Shown here: piece after piece, positions 14,421 to 58,547 of the stretch
Numbering within the stretch: the stretch's first letter is position 1
How the letters are laid out: each line of letters begins with the position of its first letter
IMG/VR virus record: IMGVR_UViG_3300006853_000001
Source of the DNA: a virus
Length of the DNA stretch: 64,000 nucleotides
Strand: one strand, 5' to 3'
Notes under the pieces: model-generated
Databases searched by the model: none
What the model was told of the DNA's origin: nothing
What the model saw: the letters and a program-made list of their open reading frames with translations, nothing else
Program-made: the position numbers and the translations under genes

Positions 14421-15443
14421 TTGCTGTGTATAGTTGAGGGCCCGGACGGCGCGGGTAAGTCCACCCTCGTCGCCGCGGTCGCCGCCGCCCTCCGCGCCAC
14501 GTGTCCCCACGATGATGTGGAGGTCTGGCACGCCGGACCTCCACCTCCGGGCGCGCACCCGCTGGACCTGTACGCCCGGCCGCTGTACGACTATCGGCCG
14601 GGCGTCGGTCGTCACATCATCTGCGACCGGTGGCACGTCGGGGAGTGGGTGTACCCCGCCGTGTTCGGTCGCCCGTCCCGGGCGGATGAGGCGAGTCGCC
14701 GGTGGCTGGACATGTTCCTGCAGGCGCGTGGCGCCCTGTTAGTTCACGTGAACCCGCCGCTGTCACGTGTCGAGGCGCAGCTCCGAGCACGTGGCGACAG
14801 CACGGTTGTCCCCGGACAGCTACCCGAGCTGTTTCTCCGTTATCACGCCGAGGTCGCCCGGTCACGGCTGCGCCGGTGGCACCTGACACACGACAGCTGG
14901 TCGGCGGCCGGCGTCGCCGAGGTGGTTCTCGAGGAGGCACGACGCGCGGAGGATGAGGCTATCCCACTCGGCCGATTCGCCACGTACGCGGGTCCTGCGC
15001 GACCCCACTACCTCCTGCTGGGCGACGTGCGCCACCAGTTGCGCGACCGTGTTGGTTCGTTTTTAACACCTCGGCACAGCGTCGCGTACGGTCCGGCGTT
15101 TGGGCCGTATCCCGGCACGTCAGGCCACTACCTGTTAACGTACCTTCCCGAGGCGATGTTTCACGCCGGCGGCGACGCGGGCATCGGCGTCGCGAACGCC
15201 TGCGACGTGGATGACTGGAAGGATCTGTGGGACGTGCTCGGCGAACCACTGATCGTGACGCTGGGCGTACGTGCGACACGTGAGTTAGGATCATTCGCAC
15301 GAGGCTCGACGCCTCACCCGCAGTACGCACGGCGATTTCACTTTAACGACGCCGTCAGGTACGGTCAAGCGATCCACCGCGCGGGGCGATACGGGGAGCA
15401 CGTGCGTAGGTGGCACGATGTCGATACCACCGGTGAGAACTAA
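14421..15443 (+). CDS. fusion protein: thymidylate/dNMP kinase-like P-loop domain plus UDG-superfamily-like domain
   Basis: The N-terminus has VEGPDGAGKST (Tmk P-loop) and ICDRW (the DR motif). The C-terminus (about aa 185-320) carries UDG-like motifs in the expected order: YLLLGDVRHQ, GPAFGPYPGTSGHYLL, VANACD, IVTLGVRA, TPHPQY. Confidence 0.55.
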   Translation: MLCIVEGPDGAGKSTLVAAVAAALRATCPHDDVEVWHAGPPPPGAHPLDLYARPLYDYRPGVGRHIICDRWHVGEWVYPAVFGRPSRADEASRRWLDMFLQARGALLVHVNPPLSRVEAQLRARGDSTVVPGQLPELFLRYHAEVARSRLRRWHLTHDSWSAAGVAEVVLEEARRAEDEAIPLGRFATYAGPARPHYLLLGDVRHQLRDRVGSFLTPRHSVAYGPAFGPYPGTSGHYLLTYLPEAMFHAGGDAGIGVANACDVDDWKDLWDVLGEPLIVTLGVRATRELGSFARGSTPHPQYARRFHFNDAVRYGQAIHRAGRYGEHVRRWHDVDTTGEN

Positions 15444-15682: not shown

Positions 15683-16522
15683 GTGGGTGCTCTCATCGAG
15701 ATCGCCAACGGCGTTCGTGGCTACGGCGACTACGTGAATCACGTGCTCAACCGATCACATCCAAGAACCGCGCGCGGCCTGCCGACGCGTGACGCCGGTT
15801 TTACGGTGGTTGTGCTTCACGACGTCACCCAGTCGCTGCCACTCGATGTCGGTCGCCAGGTCAGCACAAAAATCGCGGCGCTGGAGGCGCTTCAACTCGT
15901 TGGAGGTCACTCGGATCCTCGGTCGCTGGTAGACGCCGCGCCGTTCTTCGGCGAGCTGCTGGAGCCCGACACCCGACGGTTTCACGGCGCATACGGCGAC
16001 CGAATTCGCGGCCAACTGGTCCAGGTTGTGACGAAGTTGCGCGAGGACCCCGGCTCACGGCAGGCCGTCATCACCCTGTGGGATCCGTGGCTGGACAACC
16101 AACCGGGCAAGAAGGACTACCCATGCACCGTTGCGATTGGGTTCGAGGTAGTTCGAGGTCGAGGCCTCGACATGAACGTCACCATGCGCAGTCAGGATGT
16201 CTGGCTCGGAACGCCCTACGACTGGTTCCAGTTCTCACTCCTTCAGATGACCGTTGCCCGACTACTTGGGGTCGAACCGGCGCTCTATCATCACACAACA
16301 TGGTCCACACACATCTACGAGCGTGATATCACAAAGCTCGACTGGCTGACCGATCCGCCACCCGCCGAGCATCGAACTCAGCAACCTCACACCGGTGTTG
16401 GAGAGGTTCTCGGCAACCCACACTCGACCACCCAGCGGGCACGTGACCTGCTGTTCGACGCCGTGAAGCCCGATGAGTTGTCCGTCTCCGAGAGGATCTT
16501 GCGTGACTGGCTCACCACCTAG
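15683..16522 (+). CDS. ThyA-family pyrimidine nucleotide C5 methylase/hydroxymethylase (Asp at the Asn177-equivalent position)
   Basis: RQAVITLWDP, YPCT (catalytic Cys148) and MRSQDVWLGTPYDWFQF align to E. coli ThyA SAWN, PCH and QRSCDVFLGLPFNIASY. Codon 16220-16222 (GAC) places Asp where ThyA has Asn177. Confidence 0.7.
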   Translation: MGALIEIANGVRGYGDYVNHVLNRSHPRTARGLPTRDAGFTVVVLHDVTQSLPLDVGRQVSTKIAALEALQLVGGHSDPRSLVDAAPFFGELLEPDTRRFHGAYGDRIRGQLVQVVTKLREDPGSRQAVITLWDPWLDNQPGKKDYPCTVAIGFEVVRGRGLDMNVTMRSQDVWLGTPYDWFQFSLLQMTVARLLGVEPALYHHTTWSTHIYERDITKLDWLTDPPPAEHRTQQPHTGVGEVLGNPHSTTQRARDLLFDAVKPDELSVSERILRDWLTT

Positions 16523-17027
16523 GGTTCGCCCGTCGTGGGACGAGACGTGGCTCGCGCAGGCGCGGGCCATCGGCGCGCGCAGCCTCTGCTCGCGCGCCCA
16601 GGTCGGTGCGGTCATCGTGTCCTCGGACAACAGCCGCACGTGGGTCGGGTACAACGGCGTCCCGGCGGGGTTCGAGCACAACGATCGGCCGTGCGTCGAG
16701 TGGTGCCCGCGCGCCCAGAAGTTTCGGCGCTTTAGCCCGTCATACGACGACTGCTACACGGTGCACGCGGAGGTCAACGCTCTGCTCAAGATGGACCGCG
16801 AGCTGGGTCGCGGCGGCACCCTCTACACGACGGGTGACGTCTGCTTCGCCTGTGCTAAGGTCGTAGCCAACTCGGGTCTGGCGACCGTGGTCGTGCTGTC
16901 GGACGGCCTCGCCGCCCACCGCAAGCCCGACGACACGTACCGGTTTCTCGAGAGGTGTGGGTTATCGGTCATCGTGCACACCGGTAACCTATCCGGTTCG
17001 GGTCCCGTGGTCACGTATAACGCGTAG
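16503..17027 (+). CDS. dCMP deaminase (cytidine/deoxycytidylate deaminase family)
   Basis: The zinc motifs HAEVNAL and CFACAKVV are present, and WDETWLAQA is a typical ComEB/dCMP deaminase N-terminus. GTG 16503 follows GAGAGGA; ATG 16473 is an alternative start. Confidence 0.75.
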   Translation: MTGSPPRVRPSWDETWLAQARAIGARSLCSRAQVGAVIVSSDNSRTWVGYNGVPAGFEHNDRPCVEWCPRAQKFRRFSPSYDDCYTVHAEVNALLKMDRELGRGGTLYTTGDVCFACAKVVANSGLATVVVLSDGLAAHRKPDDTYRFLERCGLSVIVHTGNLSGSGPVVTYNA

Positions 17028-26434: not shown

Positions 26435-26450
26435 AACGGAGGTGATAAGT

Positions 26451-27806
26451 ATGCGTGTTGGGTACGGAAAGATAGGAAGATCGATGCCGCTCAGCATCAC
26501 GAAGTGCGGTAGTCTCGGCGGCGACGTGGAGATGGCCGCGACGATCGGCGAACTCGCGCGGCGCAACCCGGAGTCAGACTTCTACCTCATCGGAAAGAAC
26601 AGCGGCGAGGAGCCCACGTCGGTCGGCCTGCCGAGCAACGTGCACAACCCGTGGATCAAGTGGGGTCCGCAGCTGCTCGACGCCAAGCGCCGTACCGGCT
26701 TGAATCACGCGAACTACTCCGTGGCCGACCACCTCGCTCTGCAAGACATCTATGACTCGGTAACGCTCGACTTCATAACGAAGCTCGACGGCATCGTACT
26801 CTGGGCCGGCCAGCACGGTACGACCAACGTGCCGCTGCCCGGCGTACGTGAACCCGGTAAGTACACCAAGCCACACGACTGGTCGGCGCACTACGTCGCG
26901 TTTCTGACACGAGCGATCAACATCTGGCGCGACGTCAACCCGTGGAAGCGCGAGGAGATCTGGCTCAACTCCGATCCGCGCAACTACCTCAAGTTACGCG
27001 ACCTCAAGTGGCCGCTGCGTCACCCGGTGCTCGCACAACACACGTATCATCACAGGATCAAGCACGCGCGGTACGGAGACCCGGGCCCGAACGGCGCTTT
27101 TGAGGAGTGGTCTGCCACGTGCGACCTCGGCGTCGAGACGCCGAGCGATGTCGATAAGGTGTGGAAGGCGTCCGTGCGGAATGTATACGCCCGGTTGGAG
27201 GTCAACGGTCTCTTGCCCAGCACACCGTTCGGCGACCTGCTGTCGTTCAACGACCGCTGGGAAGATCGCGCGGGGTTCGGCCTCTTCATGAATGAGACGC
27301 GACGCTACGTGCGCCAGGACATAACCCGGTCACACGTAATGCGTGAGTGGGTACTACCACTGGAACCGGCGTGGATTCACGGCACGTGGTCACAGGCCGG
27401 CCAGGAGGAGATCAACCGCGAGATCACCCCGGCACCGTGGGGCGACTACGTACCTAAGCTTCACTCCGTACGCTGTACCTTCACCTCACCGGCCAGCGGC
27501 ACCGGCTGGGCCACGGCTAAGCCGTGGGAAGCGTTCGCGGCCGGTACCGTGTGCTTCTTTCACCCCGGCTACGACGTCCAGGATAACATCCTCGGCGACG
27601 CACCGTTGTGGTTGAAGGACTGGCTGCGCGTCACCTCGCCCGACGAGTTGGTACACCGGGTTAAGCACCTCAGCTCAGACGCGGGTCGCACCGACTGGTA
27701 TGAGCTCGTAGCCGCCCAGCGCATACACTTCAATGACGCCGTTCGGGAGTTACGCTTTGCCCGGCTGATCGAAGCGCGCCTCGGGCTGCGAGGTACCGGT
27801 GACTAG
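26451..27806 (+). CDS. glycosyltransferase resembling T4 DNA beta-glucosyltransferase (GT63-like)
   Basis: By-eye alignment to T4 BGT gives four matches. MRVGYGKIGRS aligns with MKIAIINMGNN. IWLNSDPRN aligns with YLFTDIRL, the catalytic Asp100. NETRRYVRQ aligns with GSFRSGQRE, Arg191/Arg195. AKPWEAF aligns with LRVWETM, Arg269/Glu272. The spacings are similar. ATG 26451 follows GGAGGTGA. Confidence 0.55.
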   Translation: MRVGYGKIGRSMPLSITKCGSLGGDVEMAATIGELARRNPESDFYLIGKNSGEEPTSVGLPSNVHNPWIKWGPQLLDAKRRTGLNHANYSVADHLALQDIYDSVTLDFITKLDGIVLWAGQHGTTNVPLPGVREPGKYTKPHDWSAHYVAFLTRAINIWRDVNPWKREEIWLNSDPRNYLKLRDLKWPLRHPVLAQHTYHHRIKHARYGDPGPNGAFEEWSATCDLGVETPSDVDKVWKASVRNVYARLEVNGLLPSTPFGDLLSFNDRWEDRAGFGLFMNETRRYVRQDITRSHVMREWVLPLEPAWIHGTWSQAGQEEINREITPAPWGDYVPKLHSVRCTFTSPASGTGWATAKPWEAFAAGTVCFFHPGYDVQDNILGDAPLWLKDWLRVTSPDELVHRVKHLSSDAGRTDWYELVAAQRIHFNDAVRELRFARLIEARLGLRGTGD

Positions 27807-28593
27807 GGGATCGTCGGGCGCCACGTTCCGGTACTACCTCGAGAGCGTCGGCAAGATGTGCCGGACGGACGACGGGCGTACATCACGCCAGGGACTGTGG
27901 TTACGTCAGCACCAGTCTCCCGCCGTTCCGAAGGTACTGTCGGTATATGAGCACGGCTACCAGATGGAGCGGCTCGACGACATCTCTTACATGTGGTTAA
28001 ACCACCGTGTGGTGCTCGCCGGGATCGTGGAACAACTCGAGCAGCACGTGTGGTCACAGTCCGCCGAGGTCGAGTGGTCACAGCAGGCGACGGTCGACAA
28101 GGTGGCAGACCTACTCGGAATGTTCGACGTCGGTGTTGAGGTTCAGCTGTGGCTGGAAAAGACGCACGAGTCGATCGACTGGAACGCACTTCCACGGTGC
28201 CTAACGCACGGCGACCCGACGCTGGACAACGTGATGTTTAGGCCCGGTACATCCGAACTGGTCATCATCGACCCGGTTCCCGCGACCTCGGCGGTGCCCG
28301 ACATCCGGGCTGTGGACCTCGGTAAGATGCTCCAATCAGCGCTGGGCTGGGAGCGGGTTCGGTACGGCTACCGTGAGGTAACGGGAGCTCTCGACACGCT
28401 CGGTGGCAGTGCGCGAATCAACCCGTACCACGTGCAAACGTACGCGCAAGATGATAACGAGTGGAACGCGGCCGTACTCTGGTGCGTCATTCACCTACTA
28501 CGCACCCTACCCTACCTCGCACGATGTGCGGCACCTAAGGTTCAAGATGACGTGAGAGGCATGATCGGTGACGCAACTACGTTTCTTCCTTGA
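27799..28593 (+). CDS. APH/choline-kinase-fold small-molecule (sugar?) kinase
   Basis: The Brenner motif is present in CLTHGDPTLDNVMF, with the metal-binding Asp in LVIIDPV. Confidence 0.65.
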   Translation: MTRGSSGATFRYYLESVGKMCRTDDGRTSRQGLWLRQHQSPAVPKVLSVYEHGYQMERLDDISYMWLNHRVVLAGIVEQLEQHVWSQSAEVEWSQQATVDKVADLLGMFDVGVEVQLWLEKTHESIDWNALPRCLTHGDPTLDNVMFRPGTSELVIIDPVPATSAVPDIRAVDLGKMLQSALGWERVRYGYREVTGALDTLGGSARINPYHVQTYAQDDNEWNAAVLWCVIHLLRTLPYLARCAAPKVQDDVRGMIGDATTFLP

Positions 28594-29179
28594 TCTGGAT
28601 GGCACACTCGCCGACACCGACGCGCTTAACCGGGAGGCATATCGACGAGTTGGTGTTGAGGTACCGCCGAACGCCGCCGGCTTGTCATACCGTGAGTGGC
28701 TCGGCGATCTGGTCGGTATCGGTGATGTTGAGCGTGTTCACACCGCTAAGCAGGTGTGGTACGGCATCCTGCTGGGTGACGTAGATCCGCACACCTTAGC
28801 TCTGCCGCCGACCCGACTCGCACGTACCCTGCTGTACGGTGATGCTCGGCGGTCGGCGACCGTGTCGTGTCTAACGGCTGCGTCACACGAGTGTGCACGT
28901 ACCCTACTTCGTCGACTAGGTCTAAGCGTACCCGTCAAGCCACAGTTAACGTATGACGCACGACGCGTGATTTTGTCGCGTGCGATGTCCGTCGCCAAGC
29001 ATCGAGGTACCGGTTCCGTGGTATATGTTGATGACATGGGCAGCACCGTCGAGCGACTCACCGAGGACGTTCCGGGTCTCCGGTTGCTGCACTACACCGG
29101 GCAAACCTACGAGCAACTACGCGCCGAGCTCGCCGATGTCTTAGGAGAACTTATCACCAGAGAGTTGAAAACAGCGTGA
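28568..29179 (+). CDS. HAD-superfamily phosphatase/phosphomutase
   Basis: Motif I is FLDLDGTLADTD (DxDxT) and motif IV-like is VVYVDDMG. Confidence 0.7.
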   Translation: MTQLRFFLDLDGTLADTDALNREAYRRVGVEVPPNAAGLSYREWLGDLVGIGDVERVHTAKQVWYGILLGDVDPHTLALPPTRLARTLLYGDARRSATVSCLTAASHECARTLLRRLGLSVPVKPQLTYDARRVILSRAMSVAKHRGTGSVVYVDDMGSTVERLTEDVPGLRLLHYTGQTYEQLRAELADVLGELITRELKTA

Positions 29180-29862
29180 TCGACCACGCCGGGTTGGACG
29201 CCGTGATTCTCGCCGGTGGTAAGAGTGAGCGACTGAACGGGGTGGTACCTCCCTACTTCAAGCCGTTCGTCGTCATCGAGGGCAGGTCGCTGCTGGTCGC
29301 CGCGGTGGATAGCGCGCTGGCGATGGGTGCGCGTCGGGTGATCGTGGTGTCCGCCGGCGAGAACGCCCTGCCGGTGTTTCAACTGGTGGGTCACCGCCCG
29401 GAGATTCGCGTGATGCTGGCCACCGGCGGACCCGGCCGCGCGCTTCGCCGAGGTCTCGAGCTGTGTCAAACACAACGCGTTCTGGTGCTGATGAGCGACA
29501 ACATCCACGGACCCGAGGACGTCTACGCGGTATGCACGGCGGCGAACTACGCGGTCGGCGTGCGAGTCGTTCACCGGGTTGAGGCCGAGAGGTTTACTCG
29601 TCTCCGAGGCGACCGCTGGGTGGAGCGTAGATATGACCAAGACCCGCTCGATGATGAGGTAGCGAAATGGAGCGACGACGCTACACAGGCGGTAACGGTC
29701 TGGTGCGGCCCGCTGGTCATCGACCGGTACCGCGGTCTCAACGCACTGGCCGGCCAGGAGAAGATCGGTCCGGTGCTCAATGAGATGGCGCCCAGCTTCG
29801 CGCTGGTACACGTGTTAACGCAGGATATCGGCACGCCCGACGCGGTACGCCGGGTGACCTAG
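29176..29862 (+). CDS. nucleotidyltransferase (MobA/IspD/sugar-phosphate NTP-transferase fold)
   Basis: AVILAGGKSERL is the LAGGxGxRL signature, and VLVLMSDN is present. The start shows a GTGA overlap. Confidence 0.65.
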   Translation: MIDHAGLDAVILAGGKSERLNGVVPPYFKPFVVIEGRSLLVAAVDSALAMGARRVIVVSAGENALPVFQLVGHRPEIRVMLATGGPGRALRRGLELCQTQRVLVLMSDNIHGPEDVYAVCTAANYAVGVRVVHRVEAERFTRLRGDRWVERRYDQDPLDDEVAKWSDDATQAVTVWCGPLVIDRYRGLNALAGQEKIGPVLNEMAPSFALVHVLTQDIGTPDAVRRVT

Positions 29863-29874
29863 GAAAAATGAGAG

Positions 29875-30057
29875 ATGATGCGAGCAGGTAAGCTGACCCC
29901 GCGCCAGCGCCGGCGCGCGGCTAAGAAGAGTACGGCTGCCGCCGAGCGTCGTAAACACAACTACATCGATCAGCTGATCGAGGCGCGGGCACATCGCGCC
30001 GCGCGTAGGACAATGATAAGTGCAATGCGTGATGCTCGGAAGAAACTGGTGAGTTGA
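29875..30057 (+). CDS. small basic protein
   Basis: 60 aa, rich in Lys and Arg; ATG follows GAGAG. Confidence 0.45.
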   Translation: MMRAGKLTPRQRRRAAKKSTAAAERRKHNYIDQLIEARAHRAARRTMISAMRDARKKLVS

Positions 30058-32946: not shown

Positions 32947-33144
32947 GTGAACGCGAAAGATCTGGTTGAACTAGCCGTAAGCGGTGGCACTGTGACCTCG
33001 GAGCAGGTGGAGCGTGCCGGACGAGTCGTGATGCGTCTCGGCGACAGCCGAACCACGTTTCAGCTGGGTGACGGGTCTGGTAACCTCGAGCTAGAGCTGG
33101 TCGTGCACGAGGTATCACTCAAGCGTCGAGCGGACGTGACGTAG
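32947..33144 (+). CDS. hypothetical protein
   Basis: 65 aa ORF; GTG follows GAGGAAGAGGTG. Confidence 0.45.
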   Translation: MNAKDLVELAVSGGTVTSEQVERAGRVVMRLGDSRTTFQLGDGSGNLELELVVHEVSLKRRADVT

Positions 33145-34490: not shown

Positions 34491-34817
34491 GTGACGTGGG
34501 TCCACATCATCACACTTATCGAACTGTGCGTCGGCGCGGCCGGCACACTCGTGTTCATCGTGCTCTACTGGATGAGGAGCCGCGGTGCGTGGCGTCGTAC
34601 GGCGATCGGCCGCAACGTCATGGTGTTGATGATGTCACTAGCACTCATTATGCTGCTCGACGTCGCACATGCGTTCCTCGGCGACTACCCAGGACGCGAG
34701 CTGCTGGTCACGACGCTGCTCGGCGTCCTTACGTATGTCATCTGGGGCCGCGTCTGGTTGATCGAGAAAATCTTTCACGAGCACCGCGATGATCCCGTCA
34801 CCAAGCGTATCACGTAG
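34491..34817 (+). CDS. holin-like membrane protein
   Basis: GTG 34491 follows GGAGG. There are 3-4 hydrophobic helices. The ORF track start at 34440 is less likely. Confidence 0.5.
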   Translation: MTWVHIITLIELCVGAAGTLVFIVLYWMRSRGAWRRTAIGRNVMVLMMSLALIMLLDVAHAFLGDYPGRELLVTTLLGVLTYVIWGRVWLIEKIFHEHRDDPVTKRIT

Positions 34818-37433: not shown

Positions 37434-37745
37434 GTGGTTAACGTAGACTGGTCCCGAGCGGCGTGTCGTAATCTCGACCGTGACATGTTCTTCGACAAGG
37501 ACCGTGCAGCCAAGGCCATCGCCGTGTGTGAATTATGTCAAGTTCGCCTCGACTGCCTAACGTGGGCGTTGGAGACCAGGCAGGAGTACGGCGTCTGGGG
37601 CGGACTAACCGAGGACGCCCGGCGGGTCCTGGTCTACCGGAAAACACGTGTTCGCTGTCCCGGCTGTCGGTCGCACGAGGTTTACGCATCACCTACCGGC
37701 CGTGGCCAGATCTGCCGGGCGTGCGGCCTATCGTGGCTCAGTTAG
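37434..37745 (+). CDS. whiB: WhiB-family transcription factor with extra C-terminal zinc ribbon
   Basis: The four Fe-S Cys residues lie in AACRN...VCELCQVRLDC, followed by YGVWGGLTE. An additional CPGC...CRAC pair lies at the C-terminus. Confidence 0.75.
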   Translation: MVNVDWSRAACRNLDRDMFFDKDRAAKAIAVCELCQVRLDCLTWALETRQEYGVWGGLTEDARRVLVYRKTRVRCPGCRSHEVYASPTGRGQICRACGLSWLS

Positions 37746-37805
37746 TGCCGGTTTTTACCCCGGATCGAACTACGGCCGGGCGTTCCGAGCGTGCTCTCAA
37801 GTGAC

Positions 37806-38924
37806 TCAAACACGGTACCGGGCAACCTCTCCGGCCAACCTACGCTCGGTCTCGAACGCGTCGGCCCAGGCCTCCGCCCAGCGCCACGTGTTGCCCTCCG
37901 TCGTCCAGTTCGCCGCGATTTCGCGTCCTCGACCAGACAGTTCATCACGTGCGTCACGACTCTCGACCAGAGACCTCAGATGCCGTAACCAACGCTTCGG
38001 TTTATCTGCGATCAGACCTACGCCCAGCCGGTGAAAGCGTAAGTACTCCGGACTCGGCGACGCGACCCACGGCACACCCAGCGCCGCGTACTCCAACGGC
38101 TTGAGCCACGACTTTCCGTCGTTGAATTTCGTCGCCGCCAGCGGTGCGACTCCGACGCCCAGTTTAGCGACCTCCGCAGGCCAGCCGACCAGCGGATCCT
38201 GCGGTCCGGTGTTCGTAGGCTCGACATCCAGCCGTAGCGCGTCCCGGACCCCGATGCCGTCACCTACCACGTGGAACGGCGTTCCGGTGTCTCGAGACAA
38301 CTGAGCTAGTGCGGTTCCCGTTGCCTGAAGGTCATCCGGGTGAGAGTGCGTTGAACCTGCCCAACCTACTACCGTCGAGTCTACCCGCTCGACCGCGAGA
38401 TAGCGCGCCGGCACACAGTTGTACAGGATCCTGCCGCGTCCGTGCGGTGCATACCGCGTCAGCAACGCGTCCGTGGACACGGTGACGAAGGTGGCCTCCT
38501 CGCACGCTCGCTGGGCGTACTGCCAGTTATGATCCTTGCTTGCGCCGAAGACCGGGTGCATGGCGGCAAACGCGGGATTGTTCGGATTCACAGCGGCGAG
38601 GTCGTCGTCCATGTCGATCACCACTGCGATGCCACGCCTACGCAGCATGCCGATCGCATCCACCAGGTGCTTGTGTGTGATGCGTTGCAAAATGATCATA
38701 TCGGCGTCCTCGGGTACCTGGACGTCTACGAGTTTACCGTCCGCGTCCACCCGTCCCTGGAACGCGGCGTTTCGATCCTTGGGCATAACAATGACAACGT
38801 CGTGTCCGTCTGCATGAAGCTGTCGTGCGGGCCATATTAGCCGGTGATACCCACACCCGTGTTCATCGGCGGGATACACGTACGTTTTCACAGGTTGTGT
38901 CCACCTCTCCGCGTAATCCACCAC
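37806..38924 (-). CDS. GT-B glycosyltransferase (group 1-like)
   Basis: Contains VGWAGSTHSHPDDL, FHVVGDG and KFNDGKSWLKPLEYAALGVPWVASP. It is a paralog of the gene at 41514-42500. Confidence 0.65.
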   Translation of the reverse strand: MVDYAERWTQPVKTYVYPADEHGCGYHRLIWPARQLHADGHDVVIVMPKDRNAAFQGRVDADGKLVDVQVPEDADMIILQRITHKHLVDAIGMLRRRGIAVVIDMDDDLAAVNPNNPAFAAMHPVFGASKDHNWQYAQRACEEATFVTVSTDALLTRYAPHGRGRILYNCVPARYLAVERVDSTVVGWAGSTHSHPDDLQATGTALAQLSRDTGTPFHVVGDGIGVRDALRLDVEPTNTGPQDPLVGWPAEVAKLGVGVAPLAATKFNDGKSWLKPLEYAALGVPWVASPSPEYLRFHRLGVGLIADKPKRWLRHLRSLVESRDARDELSGRGREIAANWTTEGNTWRWAEAWADAFETERRLAGEVARYRV

Positions 38925-38979
38925 GTGAGTGCGAGAATCACGACGCCGAGTAGAGCTCCTAGCGCTACTTGCCCGGTCA

Positions 38980-39576
38980 CTACCACCTGTCCGGCCTTCC
39001 CGAGGTGTTCTTGCCGTCGTGGTTCCAGATCCACGTCACCTCAGGTACGTGGTGAAAACGCGCACCGGCGTCCAGCAACCGGACGTAAAAGCCCCAGTCG
39101 TCGTAGTCGATCTCCACCCCGACCGGCGGCCCGAATTGTGCGCTGCACGCGAGCTCCGATCGCACCAGACTGGTCACCGGGATATACGACTTCTCACGCA
39201 GTAGCGCGGCAGAGAACTCCTGACCGAAGCGTCCCCACTCCTCCCGGAGAGGTATCTCATTTTCGTCCTTATCCAAGACCTGGCAGCCCGAATACACGAC
39301 GTCGGAATTGGTTAGCTCGGCAGCCTCCAGCAGCACGTTCACGTGATGCGACAGCCACCGGTCATCATCGTCCAGAAACGCGACCCACTCGGTGTCCACG
39401 CGTGACAGCGCACGGTTTCGCGTCGCGGCCGAGCCGGTGTGCTCGACGTCCACCTCGACGGCGATGGCGGTAACCCGCTGAGTCTGAACCGCCACGCTCT
39501 TCACCGCCGTCGCCAGGGCGTTGGGTCGGGTCGGGATGTGCGGGATGACCGCCGTAACGTCTCGCGGAAAGTTCAC
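38980..39576 (-). CDS. GT-A (family 2-like) glycosyltransferase, tandem paralog 1
   Basis: Contains VTAVIPHIPTRP, SAATRNRAL and WVAFLDDDD (DxD). The C-terminus is SGRPDRW. Confidence 0.65.
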   Translation of the reverse strand: MNFPRDVTAVIPHIPTRPNALATAVKSVAVQTQRVTAIAVEVDVEHTGSAATRNRALSRVDTEWVAFLDDDDRWLSHHVNVLLEAAELTNSDVVYSGCQVLDKDENEIPLREEWGRFGQEFSAALLREKSYIPVTSLVRSELACSAQFGPPVGVEIDYDDWGFYVRLLDAGARFHHVPEVTWIWNHDGKNTSGRPDRW

Positions 39577-39579
39577 GTT

Positions 39580-40149
39580 CTACCACCTATCAGGTTGTCC
39601 AGAGGTATTGTGTCGGTTGTGCCGCCAGATCCACGTAACCTCGGGGACGTGTGTGAACTGTGCGCCGGCGCGAAACGCACGCTGCTGAAAACCCCACTCA
39701 TCCCACTCGTTCGTGAACTTAACCCGCTGTGCCAACTCGGTACGCACCAGCATCGTAACGGTGATGTAAGGTCGAACGAACAGCAGCTCCGGATCGAACG
39801 GCTGACCGAACGGGTTCCACACCACCTCGTTGGCCTCGTTCGTGACGATGCAGTTTGTGTAGACGACATCAGCTCCGGTCCGCTCCGCGTGATCCAGCAG
39901 CGTCTCGATGTGATGCGGCAACCAGAGATCATCGTCGTCGAGAAACGCCACCCACGACGTGTCTGCTGCTGCCAACGCGCGCGTGCGCGTCACAGCAGAT
40001 CCCTCGCGCTGTGTGTCCACGGCGATGCTGATCCCACGCACTGAACGGCTCTGCGCGGTGACGCTCTCCAGCGCCTGCACCAGTACGTGCGCCCGCGGCG
40101 GTACGCTGGGGATCACGGCTGTGACGTCGCTCGGAAAGCTTGCTACCAC
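39580..40149 (-). CDS. GT-A (family 2-like) glycosyltransferase, tandem paralog 2
   Basis: Contains VTAVIPSVPPRA, SAVTRTRAL and WVAFLDDDD. The C-terminus is SGQPDRW. Confidence 0.65.
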   Translation of the reverse strand: MVASFPSDVTAVIPSVPPRAHVLVQALESVTAQSRSVRGISIAVDTQREGSAVTRTRALAAADTSWVAFLDDDDLWLPHHIETLLDHAERTGADVVYTNCIVTNEANEVVWNPFGQPFDPELLFVRPYITVTMLVRTELAQRVKFTNEWDEWGFQQRAFRAGAQFTHVPEVTWIWRHNRHNTSGQPDRW

Positions 40150-40712
40150 CTAGTAGCCAGTCCGCTGGTGTTACCGGAGTGCACCGCGTAACACCACGTG
40201 ATATCACCGGTACCTATGAACTTACCACCTAGCTCGAGACATCGCAACGTGAATCGCCAGTCCTCACCGGGCCACACGTCATTCTCGTCCTCGTGGTTTC
40301 GGAAGCCGGCCTCACGGGCCAGCTCCGTTCGCACCATGACGGTCATCGTTGTGTGGTGCGGATCGGACGGATTCATCTGCCGTCCCCGGTGCATCGGAAA
40401 CGGGTTGTTGCCGTCAAACCACGAGTAACAGTATGACGCGTCGTGATCTGCGGCTAGCTTCATCAGCGTCTCGAGGTGATGTGGGTAGAAGTAGTCATCA
40501 TCATCCAAGAACGCCACCCACTCCGTACGCACGGCATCCAGCGCACGCTGCCGGGTAGCCGCGGCACCCTCCTTCAACACGTCTAAGGCGCACGAGATGC
40601 CGCCGGATGGTTGCCTAGTCTGGTCCTTGACGCTCTGAACGGCACGGTTGAGGAGACCGCCGACGCGCGGCGGAATGGTCGGCAGCGCGACTGTGACCGA
40701 AACCTTACTCAT
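40143..40712 (-). CDS. GT-A (family 2-like) glycosyltransferase, tandem paralog 3
   Basis: Contains VTVALPTIPPRV, AAATRQRAL and WVAFLDDDD. The C-terminus is SGLATRW. ATG 40712 follows GGAG; the ORF track start at 40763 overlaps the upstream gene. Confidence 0.6.
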   Translation of the reverse strand: MSKVSVTVALPTIPPRVGGLLNRAVQSVKDQTRQPSGGISCALDVLKEGAAATRQRALDAVRTEWVAFLDDDDYFYPHHLETLMKLAADHDASYCYSWFDGNNPFPMHRGRQMNPSDPHHTTMTVMVRTELAREAGFRNHEDENDVWPGEDWRFTLRCLELGGKFIGTGDITWCYAVHSGNTSGLATRW

Positions 40713-40713
40713 C

Positions 40714-41001
40714 CTAGCTCCACTCATAGTCCACGACAGCCCCACCCTCATCTCGCACGACACCCGTCGGTTTATCGATCGACGAAAGTGTGTTCGACAG
40801 CTCTACACGCAAGTCGGCTGCCAACTTCGGCAGGCCCATCTCGCACGCGTCGGCGTAGGCGTTTAACGCTGCCCGCGCGTATGGGTCGTGCACGTAGTCC
40901 AGGACGAAGTAGCGGGCGCCGGCCTTGTCACCGCCGGGGCGATCTCGGCCGTCGACCCGTTGAACACGGTACCTACTCTGCAGACCGTCGTTCTCACTCA
41001 C
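40714..41001 (-). CDS. hypothetical protein
   Basis: GTG 41001 overlaps the upstream stop (GTGA). The 95 aa product contains ARYFVLDYVHDPYARAALNAYADA. Confidence 0.45.
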   Translation of the reverse strand: MSENDGLQSRYRVQRVDGRDRPGGDKAGARYFVLDYVHDPYARAALNAYADACEMGLPKLAADLRVELSNTLSSIDKPTGVVRDEGGAVVDYEWS

Positions 41002-41513
41002 GCCCACCTCACTCCACTCACGACGCACTGCCACGCCGGTCCCCGGTACGCGATCGGCCAGTCCGGCGGCACCGTATGCATATACACCTCGGATACCTCG
41101 CACCATCCCGCATCCCGCATCATATCGATGATCTTGCCTGGTGTGCACTCCCAGTGGTGCACGTCTCCGCTCCAGCGCCCGGCACCGTCGCGCAACTCTC
41201 CCAGGGTAATGTCAATAAGCGTTCCCGCGTCGGCCATCGCCTGCGCGCGGTCGAGGTCTGGCCCTACGACGAGCAACTGGCCACCCGGCACTGTGCAGTC
41301 GAGCAGCCGCGTTAGCAGGGCGACGCACTGCTGTGGCATTAGGTGTTCCAACACGTGGCCCGCGTAGATGCGTTCGATCGTCAGTGGCGCCCACGGCAGC
41401 TCGCCGGTGAGGTCGACCTCCAGGTCCTTCGGGTGCGGAGAACCGAAGTCGACGTTAACCCACCCCGGGGCGTACTGGTCACCGCAGCCGAGATTAAGTC
41501 TCACAGCTAGCAC
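40998..41513 (-). CDS. class I SAM-dependent methyltransferase
   Basis: Motif I is LNLGCGDQYAPGWVNVD, followed by IYAGHVLEHL. Confidence 0.65.
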   Translation of the reverse strand: MLAVRLNLGCGDQYAPGWVNVDFGSPHPKDLEVDLTGELPWAPLTIERIYAGHVLEHLMPQQCVALLTRLLDCTVPGGQLLVVGPDLDRAQAMADAGTLIDITLGELRDGAGRWSGDVHHWECTPGKIIDMMRDAGWCEVSEVYMHTVPPDWPIAYRGPAWQCVVSGVRWA

Positions 41514-42500
41514 TCAGTTCGCTTCATACGCTCTCTCCCACAAGTGAATGTGCTTACCAATCGTAGCGCGACGCGCACTTTCACGTGCCGCGGTACTCAT
41601 CGGCCCACGCATCGTGTCATCGGTGAGCGCATCTAGCGCATCCAGCCACTCGCCGAACGTGTCGACGATAAAGCCGTTCACGCCGTGCTGGACCCAGTCC
41701 GGATACTGACCCCACCGCGTGGCGATGACCGGTGCTCCGCGCGCCGCGTACTCGAGCGGCCGGGTCCACGACTTACCTCGGTTGTGCGACGTCCGGTTGA
41801 GCGGTGCCAGACCGATATCGATGTCAAACGACGCGAGGTGCGCGTTGTGTGTCTGGTATCCACTAACCCGTGCACGACCTTCCAGACGCCCGTCGGTGTA
41901 GTCGGAGCCGAGAGCGTGGAAGGTCGCACGCGGCTGCGTAGTCAGGTACTTGACGAGGACCTCAGTAAGCCTCTCGGCCTCCCAGTCGTGCCTGTGGAAC
42001 GGCGAGCCGGCCCAGCCGACAGTCAGTCGGTCTGGCGTCGTCAGCAGCGGACGCTCGACCGTGATAGCATCGACGCAGATCGGCAGCACGTGCACATTGT
42101 CGTTGAGCTCGGTGTACCGCTCGGCGACGTACGGCGTGCATGTCGTTACGACGTCGGCCGCCTGGACGTTTCTCTTCGTGTCCTCCGAGAGCGGCGCGTA
42201 GATCGAGTACGGCACCTCGTTCTCGGGATCCAGCCAGATGAGGTCGTCGTCCGCGTCGTAGACGGTAAGTACGTTCGGATCGGCGCACAGCGCCAGCCAC
42301 TCGGGATTCGAACCGGCAAGCCGCTGGCCGATCACAACATCGTAGTCGTGAATGTCCGGCGGAGGTGGTCCCCACGTCGCCGCCCAGCGGGTCGTGTCGA
42401 GCGCCTCAAGTGGTAGCTTGATCCTGTAGATGAAACAGGCGTCCACAGCCGTAATCCACGCGAAAACTCGACGCCTCACCGTCACAGCATGCCACCCCAC
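41514..42500 (-). CDS. GT-B glycosyltransferase (group 1-like)
   Basis: Contains TVGWAGSPFHRHDW and NRTSHNRGKSWTRPLEYAARGAPVIAT. It is a paralog of the gene at 37806-38924. Confidence 0.65.
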   Translation of the reverse strand: MGWHAVTVRRRVFAWITAVDACFIYRIKLPLEALDTTRWAATWGPPPPDIHDYDVVIGQRLAGSNPEWLALCADPNVLTVYDADDDLIWLDPENEVPYSIYAPLSEDTKRNVQAADVVTTCTPYVAERYTELNDNVHVLPICVDAITVERPLLTTPDRLTVGWAGSPFHRHDWEAERLTEVLVKYLTTQPRATFHALGSDYTDGRLEGRARVSGYQTHNAHLASFDIDIGLAPLNRTSHNRGKSWTRPLEYAARGAPVIATRWGQYPDWVQHGVNGFIVDTFGEWLDALDALTDDTMRGPMSTAARESARRATIGKHIHLWERAYEAN

Positions 42501-42503
42501 TTT

Positions 42504-43739
42504 CTAACCACCTAGTGCCTTAGTCGTTAGTGGGACCGGGATCGGTATGATGAACCGACCACCGTTCTTAATGAAGTTGACCTCTCGCTGGATCACCGTA
42601 CCTCGGTAATTCCACACGAACAGCAGGTACGTCACCGGATCCGGCCTGTCACCAAGTCCGACGATCGGGATCTTCATACCCGGCGACAGCCGACCGATCT
42701 TGTGAGGTGTGCTGTCGATGATGTGTGTCAACGTGTCCGGTCCGATGCCGCAGAAGTTCAACAGCGTCGCAGCCTTGGCCGGCATGCCGTAGCCGGCCAC
42801 CGAGCCGATCTTCCAGGCCTCCGCCAGCTCATCTTGTAGGCGTGTTCGTAGGTACTCGGCACGACCCTGCGTGCCGTGGTATGACTCGCTCTGACGCAGC
42901 CACCTCTCGGACAGCAAACGACGCGAGATGCCCGGGTCTTGTGCGGGATACGTGCCGTCTCCGCGAATCGCGAGTGTGACCTGCAGGCTGCCGCCCTGTG
43001 GTGAGACGCGCCGGGCGTCGATCACGTCCAGGCCAACCTGGTCACACACAAACTTCAACGCCGTCAGTGACAGGTAGTAGCGGTGCTCGTGGTACACGTG
43101 GTCGAGCTGGTTACCCAGCAGGAGGTCCGGCAGGTACTGGAACTCCAGCGACGCGACGCCGTCGCGCGCGAGTGCCGAACGCACCGCGGTCATAAATCCG
43201 ACCAGGTCCTCGACGTGCGCCACGACGTGATTCGCGATCAGCAACCCGACCGGTCCGTGGGTGTTACGTATCTCGGCCGCGACGTTGACGTCGAACGAGG
43301 TGAGCCAGACGGTTAGACCGCGTTCACGTGCCACCTCGACCGGACCTACCGCCGGGTCGACGCCGAGAGTCCGGCAACCCGCCTCCTGAAAGTGTCGCAG
43401 CAGGTCGCCGTCGTTGCACGCGACCTCGAGCGTCAGCCTCCGAGCCTGCTGCGGGAACAGCTTCAGTAGCTCCTGGGCACGCGTCTTGTGATGCGCGACC
43501 AGGGCCGGCGACGTACCCGAGTAGAACGAGTAGTCGTCTTCGAACACGTCCGCGGCCGCCGGTACGTATGTCTGCTGGACCAGCCAACACGTGGTACATA
43601 CGGCGACCTGGAGGGGGATGAAGTCCTCCTTGTCATCCACGGTCTGCGGAAGTTTATTCGCCAGCGGCGACTCCCCCAAGTCCAGAAACGTCTCGATGTC
43701 GCCGGCGCAGACGGCGCACTCGGTGAGTATCCTCGTCAC
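42504..43739 (-). CDS. SAM-dependent methyltransferase of the sugar C-methyltransferase type (N-terminal Zn ribbon plus MTase plus C-terminal domain)
   Basis: The N-terminus is CAVCAGDIETFLDLGESPLANKL. The Rossmann motif is LEVACNDGDLL. The length (411 aa) and layout resemble TylCIII-type NDP-hexose C-methyltransferases. Confidence 0.6.
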   Translation of the reverse strand: MTRILTECAVCAGDIETFLDLGESPLANKLPQTVDDKEDFIPLQVAVCTTCWLVQQTYVPAAADVFEDDYSFYSGTSPALVAHHKTRAQELLKLFPQQARRLTLEVACNDGDLLRHFQEAGCRTLGVDPAVGPVEVARERGLTVWLTSFDVNVAAEIRNTHGPVGLLIANHVVAHVEDLVGFMTAVRSALARDGVASLEFQYLPDLLLGNQLDHVYHEHRYYLSLTALKFVCDQVGLDVIDARRVSPQGGSLQVTLAIRGDGTYPAQDPGISRRLLSERWLRQSESYHGTQGRAEYLRTRLQDELAEAWKIGSVAGYGMPAKAATLLNFCGIGPDTLTHIIDSTPHKIGRLSPGMKIPIVGLGDRPDPVTYLLFVWNYRGTVIQREVNFIKNGGRFIIPIPVPLTTKALGG

Positions 43740-43796
43740 TTATCGCTCTCTCCTAGCGTGTGTTAGCTATCAATGAAGTCAAATCCGATGTCAGAT

Positions 43797-44495
43797 CTAC
43801 CACGGTCGACCTCCCCACTTCCGAGCGAACGTCTCCGCGTCGCGGCCGGCTTGCTCGGCCAGCGCCCCGACGGTCGTCGAGTTAGCGCACGTGTTGCCGC
43901 AGATCAGGCCGGGCAGCACCAGCACCCCGCCGTGTTGCTCACGCACTCGCCACTCCAGGTCGGTATCACCGTACCACCATCCGTAGTCCTCATCTGCGAA
44001 GATCCCGAGCTCACCTCGGATGATGAACGCCCATGGACACATGCGGGTCACGATGCTGCCCTCACCCCGCCGTGTTGCGATGTGCGGTGCGATGATGTGA
44101 CCGTGCGCGTCGCCAGACGCCGCGCCCGCGGAACCGGCGCGCATCGCACTCGCCACGGCGTCGAACCACCCCGCCGGTAGCGTGGCGTCATCGTTGAACA
44201 GGCCGACATCCCACGCGCCGTAGGCGTGTTCGGTCGCCCAGCGGGTCGCGGCCCGGAGCCCAACGTTCCACATCGCGTAGAGGTTAGGCGGATCACTGTC
44301 GTACGGCTTTACCGCCACGGCAGACCAGCCGCCGGAGGCCTCTCTTACCTGGCCGGACATCACCGGCGGATCGGATAAGTTGTCCACAACGACAATCAGT
44401 TCGACCCGCTGGGTGCCGAGCTGTTGGGCGAGGTCGGCGAGGTGGTGCGGACGATCACGTGTGGTCACCACCGCGATCCGGGGAATCTCTGTCAC
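43797..44495 (-). CDS. GT-A (family 2-like) glycosyltransferase
   Basis: Contains IAVVTTRDRPHHL and ELIVVVDNLSD, followed by VGLFNDDA (DxD-like). Confidence 0.55.
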   Translation of the reverse strand: MTEIPRIAVVTTRDRPHHLADLAQQLGTQRVELIVVVDNLSDPPVMSGQVREASGGWSAVAVKPYDSDPPNLYAMWNVGLRAATRWATEHAYGAWDVGLFNDDATLPAGWFDAVASAMRAGSAGAASGDAHGHIIAPHIATRRGEGSIVTRMCPWAFIIRGELGIFADEDYGWWYGDTDLEWRVREQHGGVLVLPGLICGNTCANSTTVGALAEQAGRDAETFARKWGGRPW

Positions 44496-44529: not shown

Positions 44530-45429
44530 CTAGAAGTACCCGCTCACAATGATGATAGGAGGTCCTCCGTCGCCACCCGTCTTCGCTCCACCCGACGGGT
44601 TGTTCGACGCACCGGAGCCTCCGCCACCCCACCGTCCGCCGGTGCCTCCGTTGTTACCCGTACCGGTGGTTCGGGCTCCCGCTCCCATGTATGAGTTGCC
44701 GCCGTGGCCACCGGCGCTGCCGGTTGCGCCGAGACGAATCGCCCCTCCCGAGCCACCGCCGTTTGCGACAACCTGACCACTAAGGATCATGCTGTCCTCG
44801 GCGCCTTGACCGATCAACGGCGTCGCGGACGCGCTGAGAATTCCACCGCCGGCACCACCTTCCGCGACGACGTGAACGCCGAAGCTGGAGTCGGGCGACT
44901 TGCTACCCGCGCCCGTACCGCCGGACGCCGCGGCTCCGAGAGTAACGGTCTCGGTATCGGTCAAGTCGGCGGCCAGTAGGATCGACCGAGCCCACCCACC
45001 TCCCTGTCCACCTGCTCCCGCGCTGGTCTGACCGGCTGCGGTGGCCGGTGCTCCGCCACCTGGCCCACCGGCGGCTTGCACCTCAACATCCACCCACAGC
45101 AGACCGTCGAGCTTGGTCCACGTGTCGGTGCCGGGAAACGTCTGCACAACCGGATCTCCGCCACGCACCAGCGTTCCGATGATGTAGTTGCCGGCCGGCG
45201 GTACGAATATCACCATAACACGCTGGCCAATGCGCACACGATTGATCAGAATGATGGTGCGCATGTCGGTCTCGTCGCCGTCATACCGGACCGTCGCGGT
45301 GCCGTCCCCGACCACCGCGATAACCTCACCCGGTCGCAGCCGCCAGGTCAGTCCGAGCGCGGGAGCACGTGCCGTTATCTCCTGGATTAACGTGCCGATC
45401 AGCTCGGGTGGCAGTATAGGTTGCGTCAT
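44530..45429 (-). CDS. glycine-rich minor tail / tail fibre protein
   Basis: Long GGxGG tracts are present (GGAGGGILS, NGGGSGG, GGTGGRWGGGGSG). The ATGA start overlaps the upstream tail gene. Confidence 0.7.
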   Translation of the reverse strand: MTQPILPPELIGTLIQEITARAPALGLTWRLRPGEVIAVVGDGTATVRYDGDETDMRTIILINRVRIGQRVMVIFVPPAGNYIIGTLVRGGDPVVQTFPGTDTWTKLDGLLWVDVEVQAAGGPGGGAPATAAGQTSAGAGGQGGGWARSILLAADLTDTETVTLGAAASGGTGAGSKSPDSSFGVHVVAEGGAGGGILSASATPLIGQGAEDSMILSGQVVANGGGSGGAIRLGATGSAGGHGGNSYMGAGARTTGTGNNGGTGGRWGGGGSGASNNPSGGAKTGGDGGPPIIIVSGYF

Positions 45430-57561: not shown

Positions 57562-57570
57562 GGCTTCCTC

Positions 57571-58494: not shown

Positions 58495-58547
58495 CCGCGC
58501 TCACCTCCCTCGTGGCTCATGCGTCGTGGTTCGTACGAACCCCGACA

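Follow-up and report, generated by a model that had tools for sequence, protein, structure and literature searches.

A glycosyltransferase and methyltransferase gene island after the tail genes of an uncultured actinobacteriophage: a candidate virion glycosylation cassette

Known virion glycosylation systems and the gene island at 37806–44495

To our knowledge, glycosylation of phage virions has been shown only in a few mycobacteriophages, where recognition by antibodies is blunted. The system, represented by gp108–110 of Che8, gp35–38 of Corndog and Myrna, was reportedly described by Freeman et al. in 2023. According to three articles, Che8, Corndog and Myrna attach glycans to the C-terminal ends of their capsid and tail tube subunits by means of their own glycosyltransferases, alongside an O-methyltransferase; Che8 gp110 and Corndog gp38 are reported to be essential (PMC12363180; PMC11600133; PMC12619734). 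This study concerns an island of nine genes, most of which encode glycosyltransferases or methyltransferases, at positions 37806–44495 of a 64,000-nucleotide stretch of viral DNA (IMG/VR record IMGVR_UViG_3300006853_000001). The whole stretch, hereafter referred to as the window, corresponds to positions 21091–85090 of a 90.5-kb metagenome-assembled contig (Logan SRR5582390). The island is interpreted as a phage glycan decoration cassette of known type that is built from non-orthologous enzymes, including a sugar C-methyltransferase. Virion glycosylation is its best reading, to which we give about an even chance of being correct.

Similar to the island, the Che8 and Corndog systems consist of small soluble GT-A-type glycosyltransferases and one or more methyltransferases that are tied to the virion block of an actinobacteriophage. 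Their glycosylation is proven, whereas that by the island is predicted. The Che8 and Corndog families include a glycosyltransferase family 2 (GT2) domain fused to TylF/Methyltransf_24, a GT2-like enzyme and a GT25 enzyme; Che8 gp110 and Corndog gp38 match PF01755. The GT25-type enzyme, which is the essential one, is present in Che8 and Corndog, and no island protein matched Che8 gp110 or Corndog gp38 (BLASTP, expect value (E) < 0.1) or PF01755. Conversely, two GT4-like GT-B enzymes and a nucleoside diphosphate (NDP)-sugar C-methyltransferase are encoded in the window but not by Che8 or Corndog. A Pfam search found no TylF/Methyltransf_24 sugar O-methyltransferase in the window. The relatives of the island described below have Methyltransf_24 in common with Corndog gp35 and the C-terminal half of Che8 gp108, and their Methyltransf_24 protein gave only a marginal match to Che8 gp108.

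Orthology with the Che8/Corndog system was rejected, as BLASTP gave only a short GT2 motif and profile comparison gave similarity at the superfamily level. The profile of the small GT2 enzymes of the island was aligned by hhalign to the N-terminal domain of Che8 gp108 over 141 columns with a probability of 91.5%, which is superfamily-level similarity only, and it did not match gp109 (probabilities of 0.4% and 3%). Given this lack of orthology, the island at best works like the Che8/Corndog system and is not a member of it by descent. Their positions also differ. In the genomes examined, the Che8 genes are at the right genome end and the Corndog genes are upstream of the prohead protease and capsid genes, whereas the island follows the tail fibre gene and abuts the virion block. 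Thus, the statement in a preliminary description of this DNA that some mycobacteriophages carry such genes at this position was incorrect. The same description called the set unusually large. This is true in comparison with Che8 (3 genes) and Corndog (4 genes), but the islands of the window's own lineage range from about 6 to 10 genes, among which nine is usual.

The island and its two borders comprise the following features, listed in the direction of transcription of the island.

44530..45429, minus strand: glycine-rich tail fibre, 299 amino acid residues (PF21722 Gly_rich_2, 30 bits against a cut-off of 24.3; tail-fibre families phrog_863, phrog_6202 and phrog_454)
43797..44495, minus strand: divergent GT-A (GT2-like) glycosyltransferase, 232 residues (homologues and AlphaFold2 (AF2) model)
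42504..43739, minus strand: homologue of NDP-hexose C-3 methyltransferases of the TcaB9/KijD1/MtmC family, 411 residues (Pfam and PDB matches)
41514..42500, minus strand: GT-B (GT1/GT4-type) glycosyltransferase, 328 residues (PF13524, PF13692 and phrog_7162)
40998..41513, minus strand: small putative class I S-adenosylmethionine (SAM)-dependent methyltransferase, 171 residues, or 168 residues from 41504 by the gene caller (phrog_6636)
40714..41001, minus strand: 95-residue protein, function not assigned (start/stop analysis and gene caller)
40143..40712, minus strand: small GT2 glycosyltransferase, copy 1, 189 residues (PF00535, 41.9 bits; phrog_14775, E 2e-33)
39580..40149, minus strand: small GT2 glycosyltransferase, copy 2, 189 residues (PF00535, 50.6 bits; phrog_14775, E 1.5e-41)
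38980..39576, minus strand: small GT2 glycosyltransferase, copy 3, 198 residues (PF00535, 40.6 bits; phrog_14775, E 8e-31)
37806..38924, minus strand: GT4-like GT-B glycosyltransferase, open reading frame (ORF) of 372 residues, or 361 residues from 38891 by the gene caller (phrog_7162, E 1e-33; AF2 model)
37746..37805, no strand: convergent intergenic spacer between the island end and the WhiB gene (37434–37745, plus strand), defined by the gene layout

The interval 37806–44495 is filled on the minus strand by nine consecutive ORFs. An independent gene caller applied to the source contig found the same nine genes, whose products are 232, 411, 328, 168, 95, 189, 189, 198, and 361 residues long. 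Both results agree with the nine consecutive minus-strand genes directly after the glycine-rich fibre that were described previously. All nine genes show G+C contents of codon positions in the order GC3 > GC1 > GC2, the signature of real genes in a genome of high G+C content. The intergenic gaps are 57 nucleotides (nt) or shorter, and several stop/start pairs overlap or abut. The fibre gene at 44530–45429, which is the last recognisable virion gene, is immediately upstream of the island, and the first island gene begins 34 nt after it. The N-terminal part of this fibre is kept at the same position in relatives. The island genes are co-oriented and translationally coupled, forming one operon with the tail genes. 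The 372-residue GT-B gene is the last gene of this operon, and the convergent spacer marks the end of the structural/late operon in the window genome. A simple scan of the spacer revealed no convincing intrinsic terminator. Similarly, simple promoter/terminator scans of the island revealed no convincing internal element and were uninformative, and Rfam, tRNA, and repeat scans gave nothing relevant besides the GT2 triplication described below.

Enzymes encoded by the island

The four GT-A glycosyltransferases and two paralogous GT-B enzymes of the preliminary description were both confirmed. Each of the four GT-A genes encodes a DxD-type motif together with either PF00535, which is found in three of them, or the GT-A fold, to which the 232-residue protein is assigned by its homologues and its AF2 model. 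The three small GT2 enzymes exceed the PF00535 cut-off (41–51 bits vs. 23.3) and each contains an FLDDDD motif. The identities among these paralogues range from 36 to 51%, with copy 2 being 51% identical to copy 3 and 39% identical to copy 1. DNA repeats spaced 566–600 nt apart point to a tandem triplication of the small GT2 gene. Copy 1, whose corrected start is at 40712 (189 residues), is the type that is conserved throughout the lineage, as it is 40–47% identical to the single GT2 of nearly every related island. The subtype of copy 3 has orthologues in L090 and L109 (L numbers are the locus handles used in this study).

The 232-residue protein had no match of its own in Pfam, PHROG or NCBIfam, and a direct PDB sequence search with its family was nearly empty. 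The NCBIfam scan gave only sub-threshold matches to generic glycosyltransferases. Many of its 137 homologues carry PF00535 or a GT2 name, and the family contains an invariant N/C-D-D DxD motif. The protein is 37% identical to gp109 of Streptomyces phage KimJongPhill. Its AF2 model, with a predicted local distance difference test score (pLDDT) of 95.9, has a GT-A fold, and the nearest structures are AvpGT, TarS, RmlT, TarP, chondroitin polymerase, and ppGalNAcT2.

TarS, RmlT, and TarP are soluble wall-teichoic-acid glycosyltransferases, and TarP is prophage-encoded. This similarity favours an explanation in which the island enzymes modify a host envelope glycopolymer or a lipid-linked precursor, such as a teichoic-acid-like polymer, the arabinogalactan linker or lipoglycans, at the cytoplasmic face, and in which masking of receptors leads to superinfection exclusion or to progeny that do not stick to debris. 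The 232-residue enzyme and TarP, TarS, and RmlT have a soluble GT-A catalytic domain in common. Unlike the island, however, each of the latter acts as a single enzyme, has additional domains for oligomerisation or acceptor binding, and serves lysogeny or host housekeeping. Moreover, the structural matches of the island glycosyltransferase models, including these top neighbours, are at the level of the generic GT-A or GT-B fold, with identities of 10–17%. An envelope target is unlikely in our view, and the bearing of gene position on it is considered below.

Both GT-B enzymes possess two Rossmann-like domains and a C-terminal nucleotide-sugar motif, as found by Pfam or in the model, and they are paralogues with an identity of 30% (E 9e-17). 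The 328-residue enzyme matches PF13524 (33.8 bits) and PF13692 (29.4 bits), both past the cut-off, as well as phrog_7162 (E 4e-38), and is ~30% identical to Zuko gp5 and KimJongPhill gp6. Its gene is accessory in the lineage, with homologues in the related islands only at L087 and L100. The Pfam matches of the 372-residue enzyme are below the cut-off, and its AF2 model (pLDDT 95.8) has a GT-B fold whose top matches are GT4 enzymes. The nearest of these are the methylmannose-polysaccharide mannosyltransferase of M. hassiacum, BshA, MshA, and PimA. The 372-residue enzyme is encoded by the most conserved island gene, which nearly every related island contains. The protein search gave more than 1,300 homologues of it, mostly on metagenomic contigs, of which the top 120 are all 50–75% identical to it. 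Given that the GT-B homologues, more than 100 of them, retain identities of 50–75% while those of the adjacent minor tail protein are 36–45%, the GT-B enzyme is suggested to have a partner that is itself essential and conserved.

The 372-residue enzyme resembles PimA, MshA, and the methylmannose-polysaccharide mannosyltransferase, all of them actinobacterial enzymes that act on envelope or cytoplasmic glycans. This would also suit an envelope target, as would the annotation of homologues in source records as 'glycosyltransferase involved in cell wall biosynthesis'. The mannosyltransferase is cytoplasmic and works with methyltransferases. As the best structural match of the core GT-B, it also bears on a further explanation, according to which the module makes a free or non-virion product, such as a methylated oligo- or polysaccharide, or glycosylates a small molecule or a host protein to the benefit of replication or lysis. 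This match is, however, one of many near-equal structural matches to GT4 enzymes.

The 411-residue protein contains PF08421 (Methyltransf_13, the zinc ribbon), PF13489 (Methyltransf_23), and PF08484 (Methyltransf_14), all past their cut-offs. It also matches TcaB9, KijD1, and MtmC in PDB over its full length (E about 1e-65). These results bear out its previous recognition as a protein with the layout of an NDP-sugar C-methyltransferase. In the alignment to 3ndi, all four Cys residues of the zinc-binding CxxC...CxxC are conserved. The protein also retains the equivalents of Y76, H181, Y222, E224, and H225 of TcaB9, which we take to be the active-site residues studied in TcaB9 mutants. Thus, the three-domain layout, the full-length match and the zinc and catalytic residues are all common to the 411-residue protein and the TcaB9/KijD1/MtmC (TylC3-type) enzymes. 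Their settings differ, as TcaB9-type enzymes come from antibiotic deoxysugar clusters of actinomycetes, whereas their homologue here is in a phage virion operon. Moreover, the window lacks dehydratase, aminotransferase, and reductase partners of this enzyme, and the relatives supply partners of the short-chain dehydrogenase/reductase (SDR) type.

That TcaB9-type enzymes are typical of natural-product deoxysugar pathways would again be in line with a free or non-virion product. Such a product is very improbable, given that no scaffold, polyketide or export genes are nearby and that its genes would not be expected beside virion genes as consistently as they are in several genome architectures.

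The 171-residue protein is probably a class I SAM-dependent methyltransferase, as proposed previously from sequence, although the matches behind this assignment are weak. They comprise phrog_6636 'methyltransferase' (E 2e-6) and, for the family profile, PDB methyltransferases (E 0.002–0.03); a direct PDB sequence search with the protein was nearly empty. In addition, LNLGCG and HVLEHL motifs are conserved in the family, and the homologues gp5 and gp108 of KimJongPhill carry a methyltransferase annotation. The protein is 51–52% identical to the products of genes that adjoin the C-methyltransferase gene in L090, L092, and L109.

The small unknown of the preliminary description is present, but its product is the 95-residue protein encoded at 40714–41001 and not that of a 144-residue ORF. 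Its GTG start overlaps the stop of the methyltransferase gene (GTGA). The protein matches the N-terminal part of phrog_9572 (E 8e-22). Its homologues are scattered among phages of Bordetella, Achromobacter, Ralstonia, and Xanthomonas and a prophage of M. abscessus. Given that it is absent from the related islands and scattered in unrelated phages, the 95-residue protein is probably outside the sugar chemistry.

Conservation of the island in related viral contigs

With the adjacent 381-residue minor tail protein as an anchor, 28 environmental viral contigs were recovered, in which this protein is 36–45% identical to that of the window. In about 25 of the 28, homologues of island genes follow the fibre gene on its strand. 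L112 has no island gene within the 10 kb covered, the sequences of L097 and L099 stop shortly past the fibre gene, and those of several further contigs break off within the island. These contigs and the window phage also have their head and neck genes in common. The genes for the 372-residue GT-B, the 232-residue GT-A and one small GT2 form the recurring core of the islands. The other genes vary: that for the C-methyltransferase occurs at about 10 loci, that for the small methyltransferase at 3, that for the second GT-B at 2, and extra GT2 copies at 3. Two gene orders recur, and the window is of the type in which the 232-residue gene is the first and the 372-residue gene the last.

The islands of the relatives also contain genes that are missing from the window. 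An SDR-type NDP-sugar 4,6-dehydratase/epimerase (PF16363, E 4e-58) is found in most of them, and its gene adjoins that of the C-methyltransferase in several relatives. A Methyltransf_24 methyltransferase (cluster 1; PF13578, E 6e-10 for the representative) is found in about nine, and other extras include a TOD1/MUCI70-like glycosyltransferase, another GT-A family, and a UDP-glucose dehydrogenase. The SDR-type genes, the methyltransferases and the UDP-glucose dehydrogenase fit the synthesis of modified NDP-sugars for the glycosyltransferases. In many relatives, an endolysin gene (Amidase_2, GH25 or Rv2525c-like) directly follows the island on the same strand, which places the island inside a late block of tail, island, and lysis genes.

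The tail-to-lysis position in the late operon, which is maintained across the lineage, would be late for receptor masking and so argues against an envelope target. Prophages in the genomes of Micromonospora, Actinoplanes, and Catenuloplanes (L114–L123), which lack the island, point in the same direction but only as a weak control. The tail-tip module of the window is 41–46% identical to theirs. The tape measure, the minor tail protein and the N-terminus of the fibre are in common, whereas the head and neck genes are unrelated. This is a clear case of the exchange of a tail-tip module between phage lineages. As these prophages belong to a different head lineage and have only the tail-tip module in common with the window phage, they make a poor island-negative control.

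The only cultured phages with detectable homologues of island genes are Streptomyces phages Zuko and KimJongPhill (Zukovirus) and Arthrobacter phages Atuin, Mimi, and Racecar. The homologues, which are 27–39% identical, are the 232-residue GT-A, the small GT2, the GT-B enzymes, and the small methyltransferase. Similar to relatives of the window phage, these phages carry a UDP-glucose dehydrogenase, but they have no C-methyltransferase. The homologues form two small sets at the genome ends of Zukovirus and are scattered among non-structural genes in Atuin. The same families also occur beside virion genes elsewhere, namely at L024, next to a terminase-like gene, and in KimJongPhill, where gp4–6 are upstream of the terminase gene. 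A megablast search of the island against 50,697 phage genomes gave zero matches, and no close deposited relative was found there. An exact 45-nt word of the window was likewise absent from the GTDB representative genomes and from IMG/VR.

In addition, many relatives recovered with the capsid as an anchor (L011–L085) have, on the strand of the capsid gene and ~8 kb before it, a small GT2 copy, and at L024 (1116–2209) a small GT2 gene and a small methyltransferase gene directly precede the terminase-like gene. The start of the virion block is a second favoured site for small GT2 and methyltransferase genes.

Predicted target of the glycosyltransferases and neighbouring regions

Virion decoration is the most economical target of the island, given the gene content, the contiguity with the tail genes, the lineage-conserved position in the late operon and the predicted solubility of the proteins. 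No membrane or hydrophobic segment was found in any of the nine island proteins (maximum Kyte-Doolittle hydropathy over 19 residues (KD19) of 1.35), nor was any flippase, polymerase or initiating phosphoglycosyltransferase identified among them. Thus, the acceptor would be met in the cytoplasm. The repeated occurrence of these enzyme families next to virion modules, in genomes of different layout, also speaks for virion proteins as the acceptor. We propose that the island genes are transcribed together with the late virion genes and form a cytoplasmic module for glycan synthesis. During particle production, the six soluble glycosyltransferases of this module would build a short glycan of several sugars on structural proteins, the candidates being the capsid hexamer (58548–60290), the pentamer (57571–58494), the tail tube (56899–57561), and possibly the fibre (44530–45429). 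The core trio, which consists of the 372-residue GT-B, the 232-residue GT-A and one GT2, would start and extend the glycan, to which the accessory second GT-B and the two extra GT2 copies may add further residues. By analogy with the glycosylated mycobacteriophages, such a coat would shield the surface of particles in the environment or make it more stable.

The TcaB9-type enzyme would methylate C-3 of an NDP-4-keto-6-deoxyhexose, yielding the donor of a branched C-methyl sugar. Since there is no dehydratase gene in the window, the 4-keto-6-deoxyhexose, presumably dTDP-4-keto-6-deoxyglucose (dTDP, deoxythymidine diphosphate), would come from the RmlA/RmlB pathway of the host. The small SAM-dependent methyltransferase probably methylates the glycan or a sugar. 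It is doubtful, though conceivable, that this widespread, uncultured soil actinobacteriophage lineage decorates its virions with a methylated multi-sugar glycan that contains an 'antibiotic-type' branched 3-C-methyl-6-deoxyhexose. The NDP-4-keto-6-deoxyhexose, made by the host or the phage, would in this case be diverted through the TcaB9-like enzyme of the phage. As far as we know, such a glycan would bring the first C-branched sugar onto a virus particle. Virion glycosylation would then also be a core trait that a large group of phages conserves, rather than a sporadic accessory of mycobacteriophages.

Several points weigh against virion glycosylation. The virion-protein acceptor, above all other parts of the proposal, is inferred, and late expression is deduced from the gene order, the promoter and terminator scans being uninformative. 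The island enzymes are not orthologues of the proven Che8/Corndog set and include no GT25-type enzyme. Given that TarS, TarP, and RmlT are soluble and glycosylate wall teichoic acid, the solubility of the island proteins is compatible with a host-envelope target as well. Finally, no homologue of the SDR-type dehydratase/epimerase of the relatives was found in the window by tblastn, and the dehydratase and reductase partners of a C-3 methyltransferase pathway are lacking. The C-terminal Ser/Thr/Pro patches of the virion proteins are modest, and their enrichment is too modest to be used. Against an envelope target, a non-exhaustive scan of window proteins turned up neither an integrase nor a repressor. 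The island also differs from Gtr-type lysogenic conversion, as neither membrane-embedded GtrA, GtrB or GtrC nor any Gtr family was found.

If virion glycosylation is correct, it would extend to a large environmental lineage, as judged by the more than 1,300 homologues of the core GT-B. It would also imply the recruitment of non-orthologous enzyme sets to a common task. In addition, sugar C-methylation and deoxysugar tailoring would join the known abilities of phages, and the island would provide a compact kit of soluble enzymes for decorating protein nanoparticles. Should the target instead be the host envelope, the island would be an unusual, late-expressed receptor-masking system.

Phage DNA was also considered as a target. 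In this explanation, the island hypermodifies DNA with a glycan on hydroxymethyl-pyrimidines, similar to the T-even or multi-sugar DNA glycosyltransferases. The genes that bear on it are on the plus strand of the window.

14421..15443, plus strand: protein with weak, sub-threshold N-terminal P-loop matches (profile matches)
15683..16522, plus strand: thymidylate-synthase-like (ThyA-like) enzyme (sequence search)
16473..17027, plus strand: dCMP deaminase (sequence search)
27799..28593, plus strand: APH-family kinase (sequence search)
29176..29862, plus strand: NTP_transf_3 nucleotidyltransferase (sequence search)

A dUTPase_2 protein and a C5 DNA methylase-like protein are also encoded on the plus strand, the set of which includes 30054–30569 and 31469–32482. 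Taken together, the genes for the P-loop protein, the ThyA-like enzyme, the deaminase, the kinase, the nucleotidyltransferase, the dUTPase_2 protein, and the methylase-like protein look like a modified-pyrimidine or DNA hypermodification pathway.

The presence of the ThyA-like enzyme, the dCMP deaminase, dUTPase_2 and the weakly matched P-loop protein favours a DNA target for the island, as does a passage of PMC12619734 stating that phage glycosyltransferases build glycans on DNA (Pyle 2024, as cited in PMC12619734). However, the nucleotide genes lie among replication genes on the opposite strand, at a distance of more than 20 kb, whereas the island is in the virion operon. Moreover, a scan of limited sensitivity for close relatives of the ThyA-like gene retrieved just three IMG/VR contigs, none of which bears the island, while a tail-gene scan by the same method gave 28. 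We also know of no counterpart, in the known DNA glycosylation systems, of an NDP-6-deoxysugar C-methyltransferase or of the SDR-type dehydratase/epimerase of the relatives. Modification of DNA by the island is thus highly improbable.

The region 25304–29862 had been described as a second glycosyltransferase operon with a plausible DNA target. Sequence searches found no glycosyltransferase in it, and only the APH-type kinase and the NTP_transf_3 protein were recognisable. The 376-, 488-, and 203-residue proteins of this region had no Pfam or PHROG match, and single-sequence and profile searches in the region gave no PDB match for the 376- and 488-residue proteins either. The 376-residue family has only 18 homologues, all unannotated, in which a GT4-like 'GFSxGTEYxLLEAxDAGCxIV' motif is visible by eye. 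This motif makes the earlier guess of glycosyltransferases in the region possible. A DNA-modification role of 25304–29862 together with the nearby nucleotide genes is plausible and is a separate matter from the island.

The phage is interpreted as a siphovirus of an actinobacterium. On the minus strand, the window encodes a portal protein, an HK97-type major capsid protein of 580 residues (hexamer), a capsid pentamer, a major tail protein, a head-tail adaptor, a tape measure, and minor tail proteins. The plus strand carries replication and nucleotide-metabolism genes, a holin gene, and the WhiB regulator gene. The G+C content of the window is ~64%, and tRNA and Rfam scans of the window gave no match. 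The capsid protein is at most 37% identical to the capsid proteins of Rhodococcus, Gordonia, Streptomyces, and cluster-B-type Mycobacterium phages. Given the WhiB regulator and the tail-tip module common with Micromonosporaceae prophages, the host is predicted to be an actinobacterium and may belong to the Micromonosporaceae.

In the window phage, the holin gene (about 34491–34817) and a probable lysis-associated gene (33144–33953) are plus-strand genes that point towards the island. The product of the latter is 54% identical to that of the gene after the island in L105. Given that an endolysin gene follows the island on the same strand in the relatives, the lysis region of the window phage is rearranged.

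The cultured relatives Tonitrus (L131), JAMaL (L132), Jambalaya (L133), and BabyGotBac (L134) are without homologues of the island genes. Nearly all of their hexamer, pentamer and major tail proteins end with ...(A/V/E/P)TP or ...PAP, the endings being LAPTP, APATP, NQPAP, ITPAP, QPATP, APETP, AVTP, VTPA, and PVTP. The window lineage has no such shared TP/PAP ending at the C-termini (compare 56899–60290), and in the cultured relatives the tag is common to three different virion proteins.

A further protein of the virion block, encoded at 52882–55068 on the minus strand, is 728 residues long. Its N-terminal ~550 residues consist of ~20 diverged 19-residue repeats with the Thr/Ser/Asp-rich consensus GQVTETDSAGVxxxxKTxx, whose DNA is too diverged for detection by Tandem Repeats Finder (TRF). 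Only the C-terminal ~170 residues (phrog_810) are kept in relatives, in which the gene is short. The protein may form a fibre of the neck or collar, or it may serve as an acceptor of the glycan.

Finally, very large proteins of 1558, 855, and 846 residues are encoded upstream of the portal gene, on the part of the source contig beyond window position 64000 (L126:1–7453). The ORF at 62838–63956 on the minus strand of the window represents the C-terminal part of one such protein (phrog_3895). The 1558- and 846-residue proteins contain ADP-ribosyltransferase exotoxin domains (PF03496).

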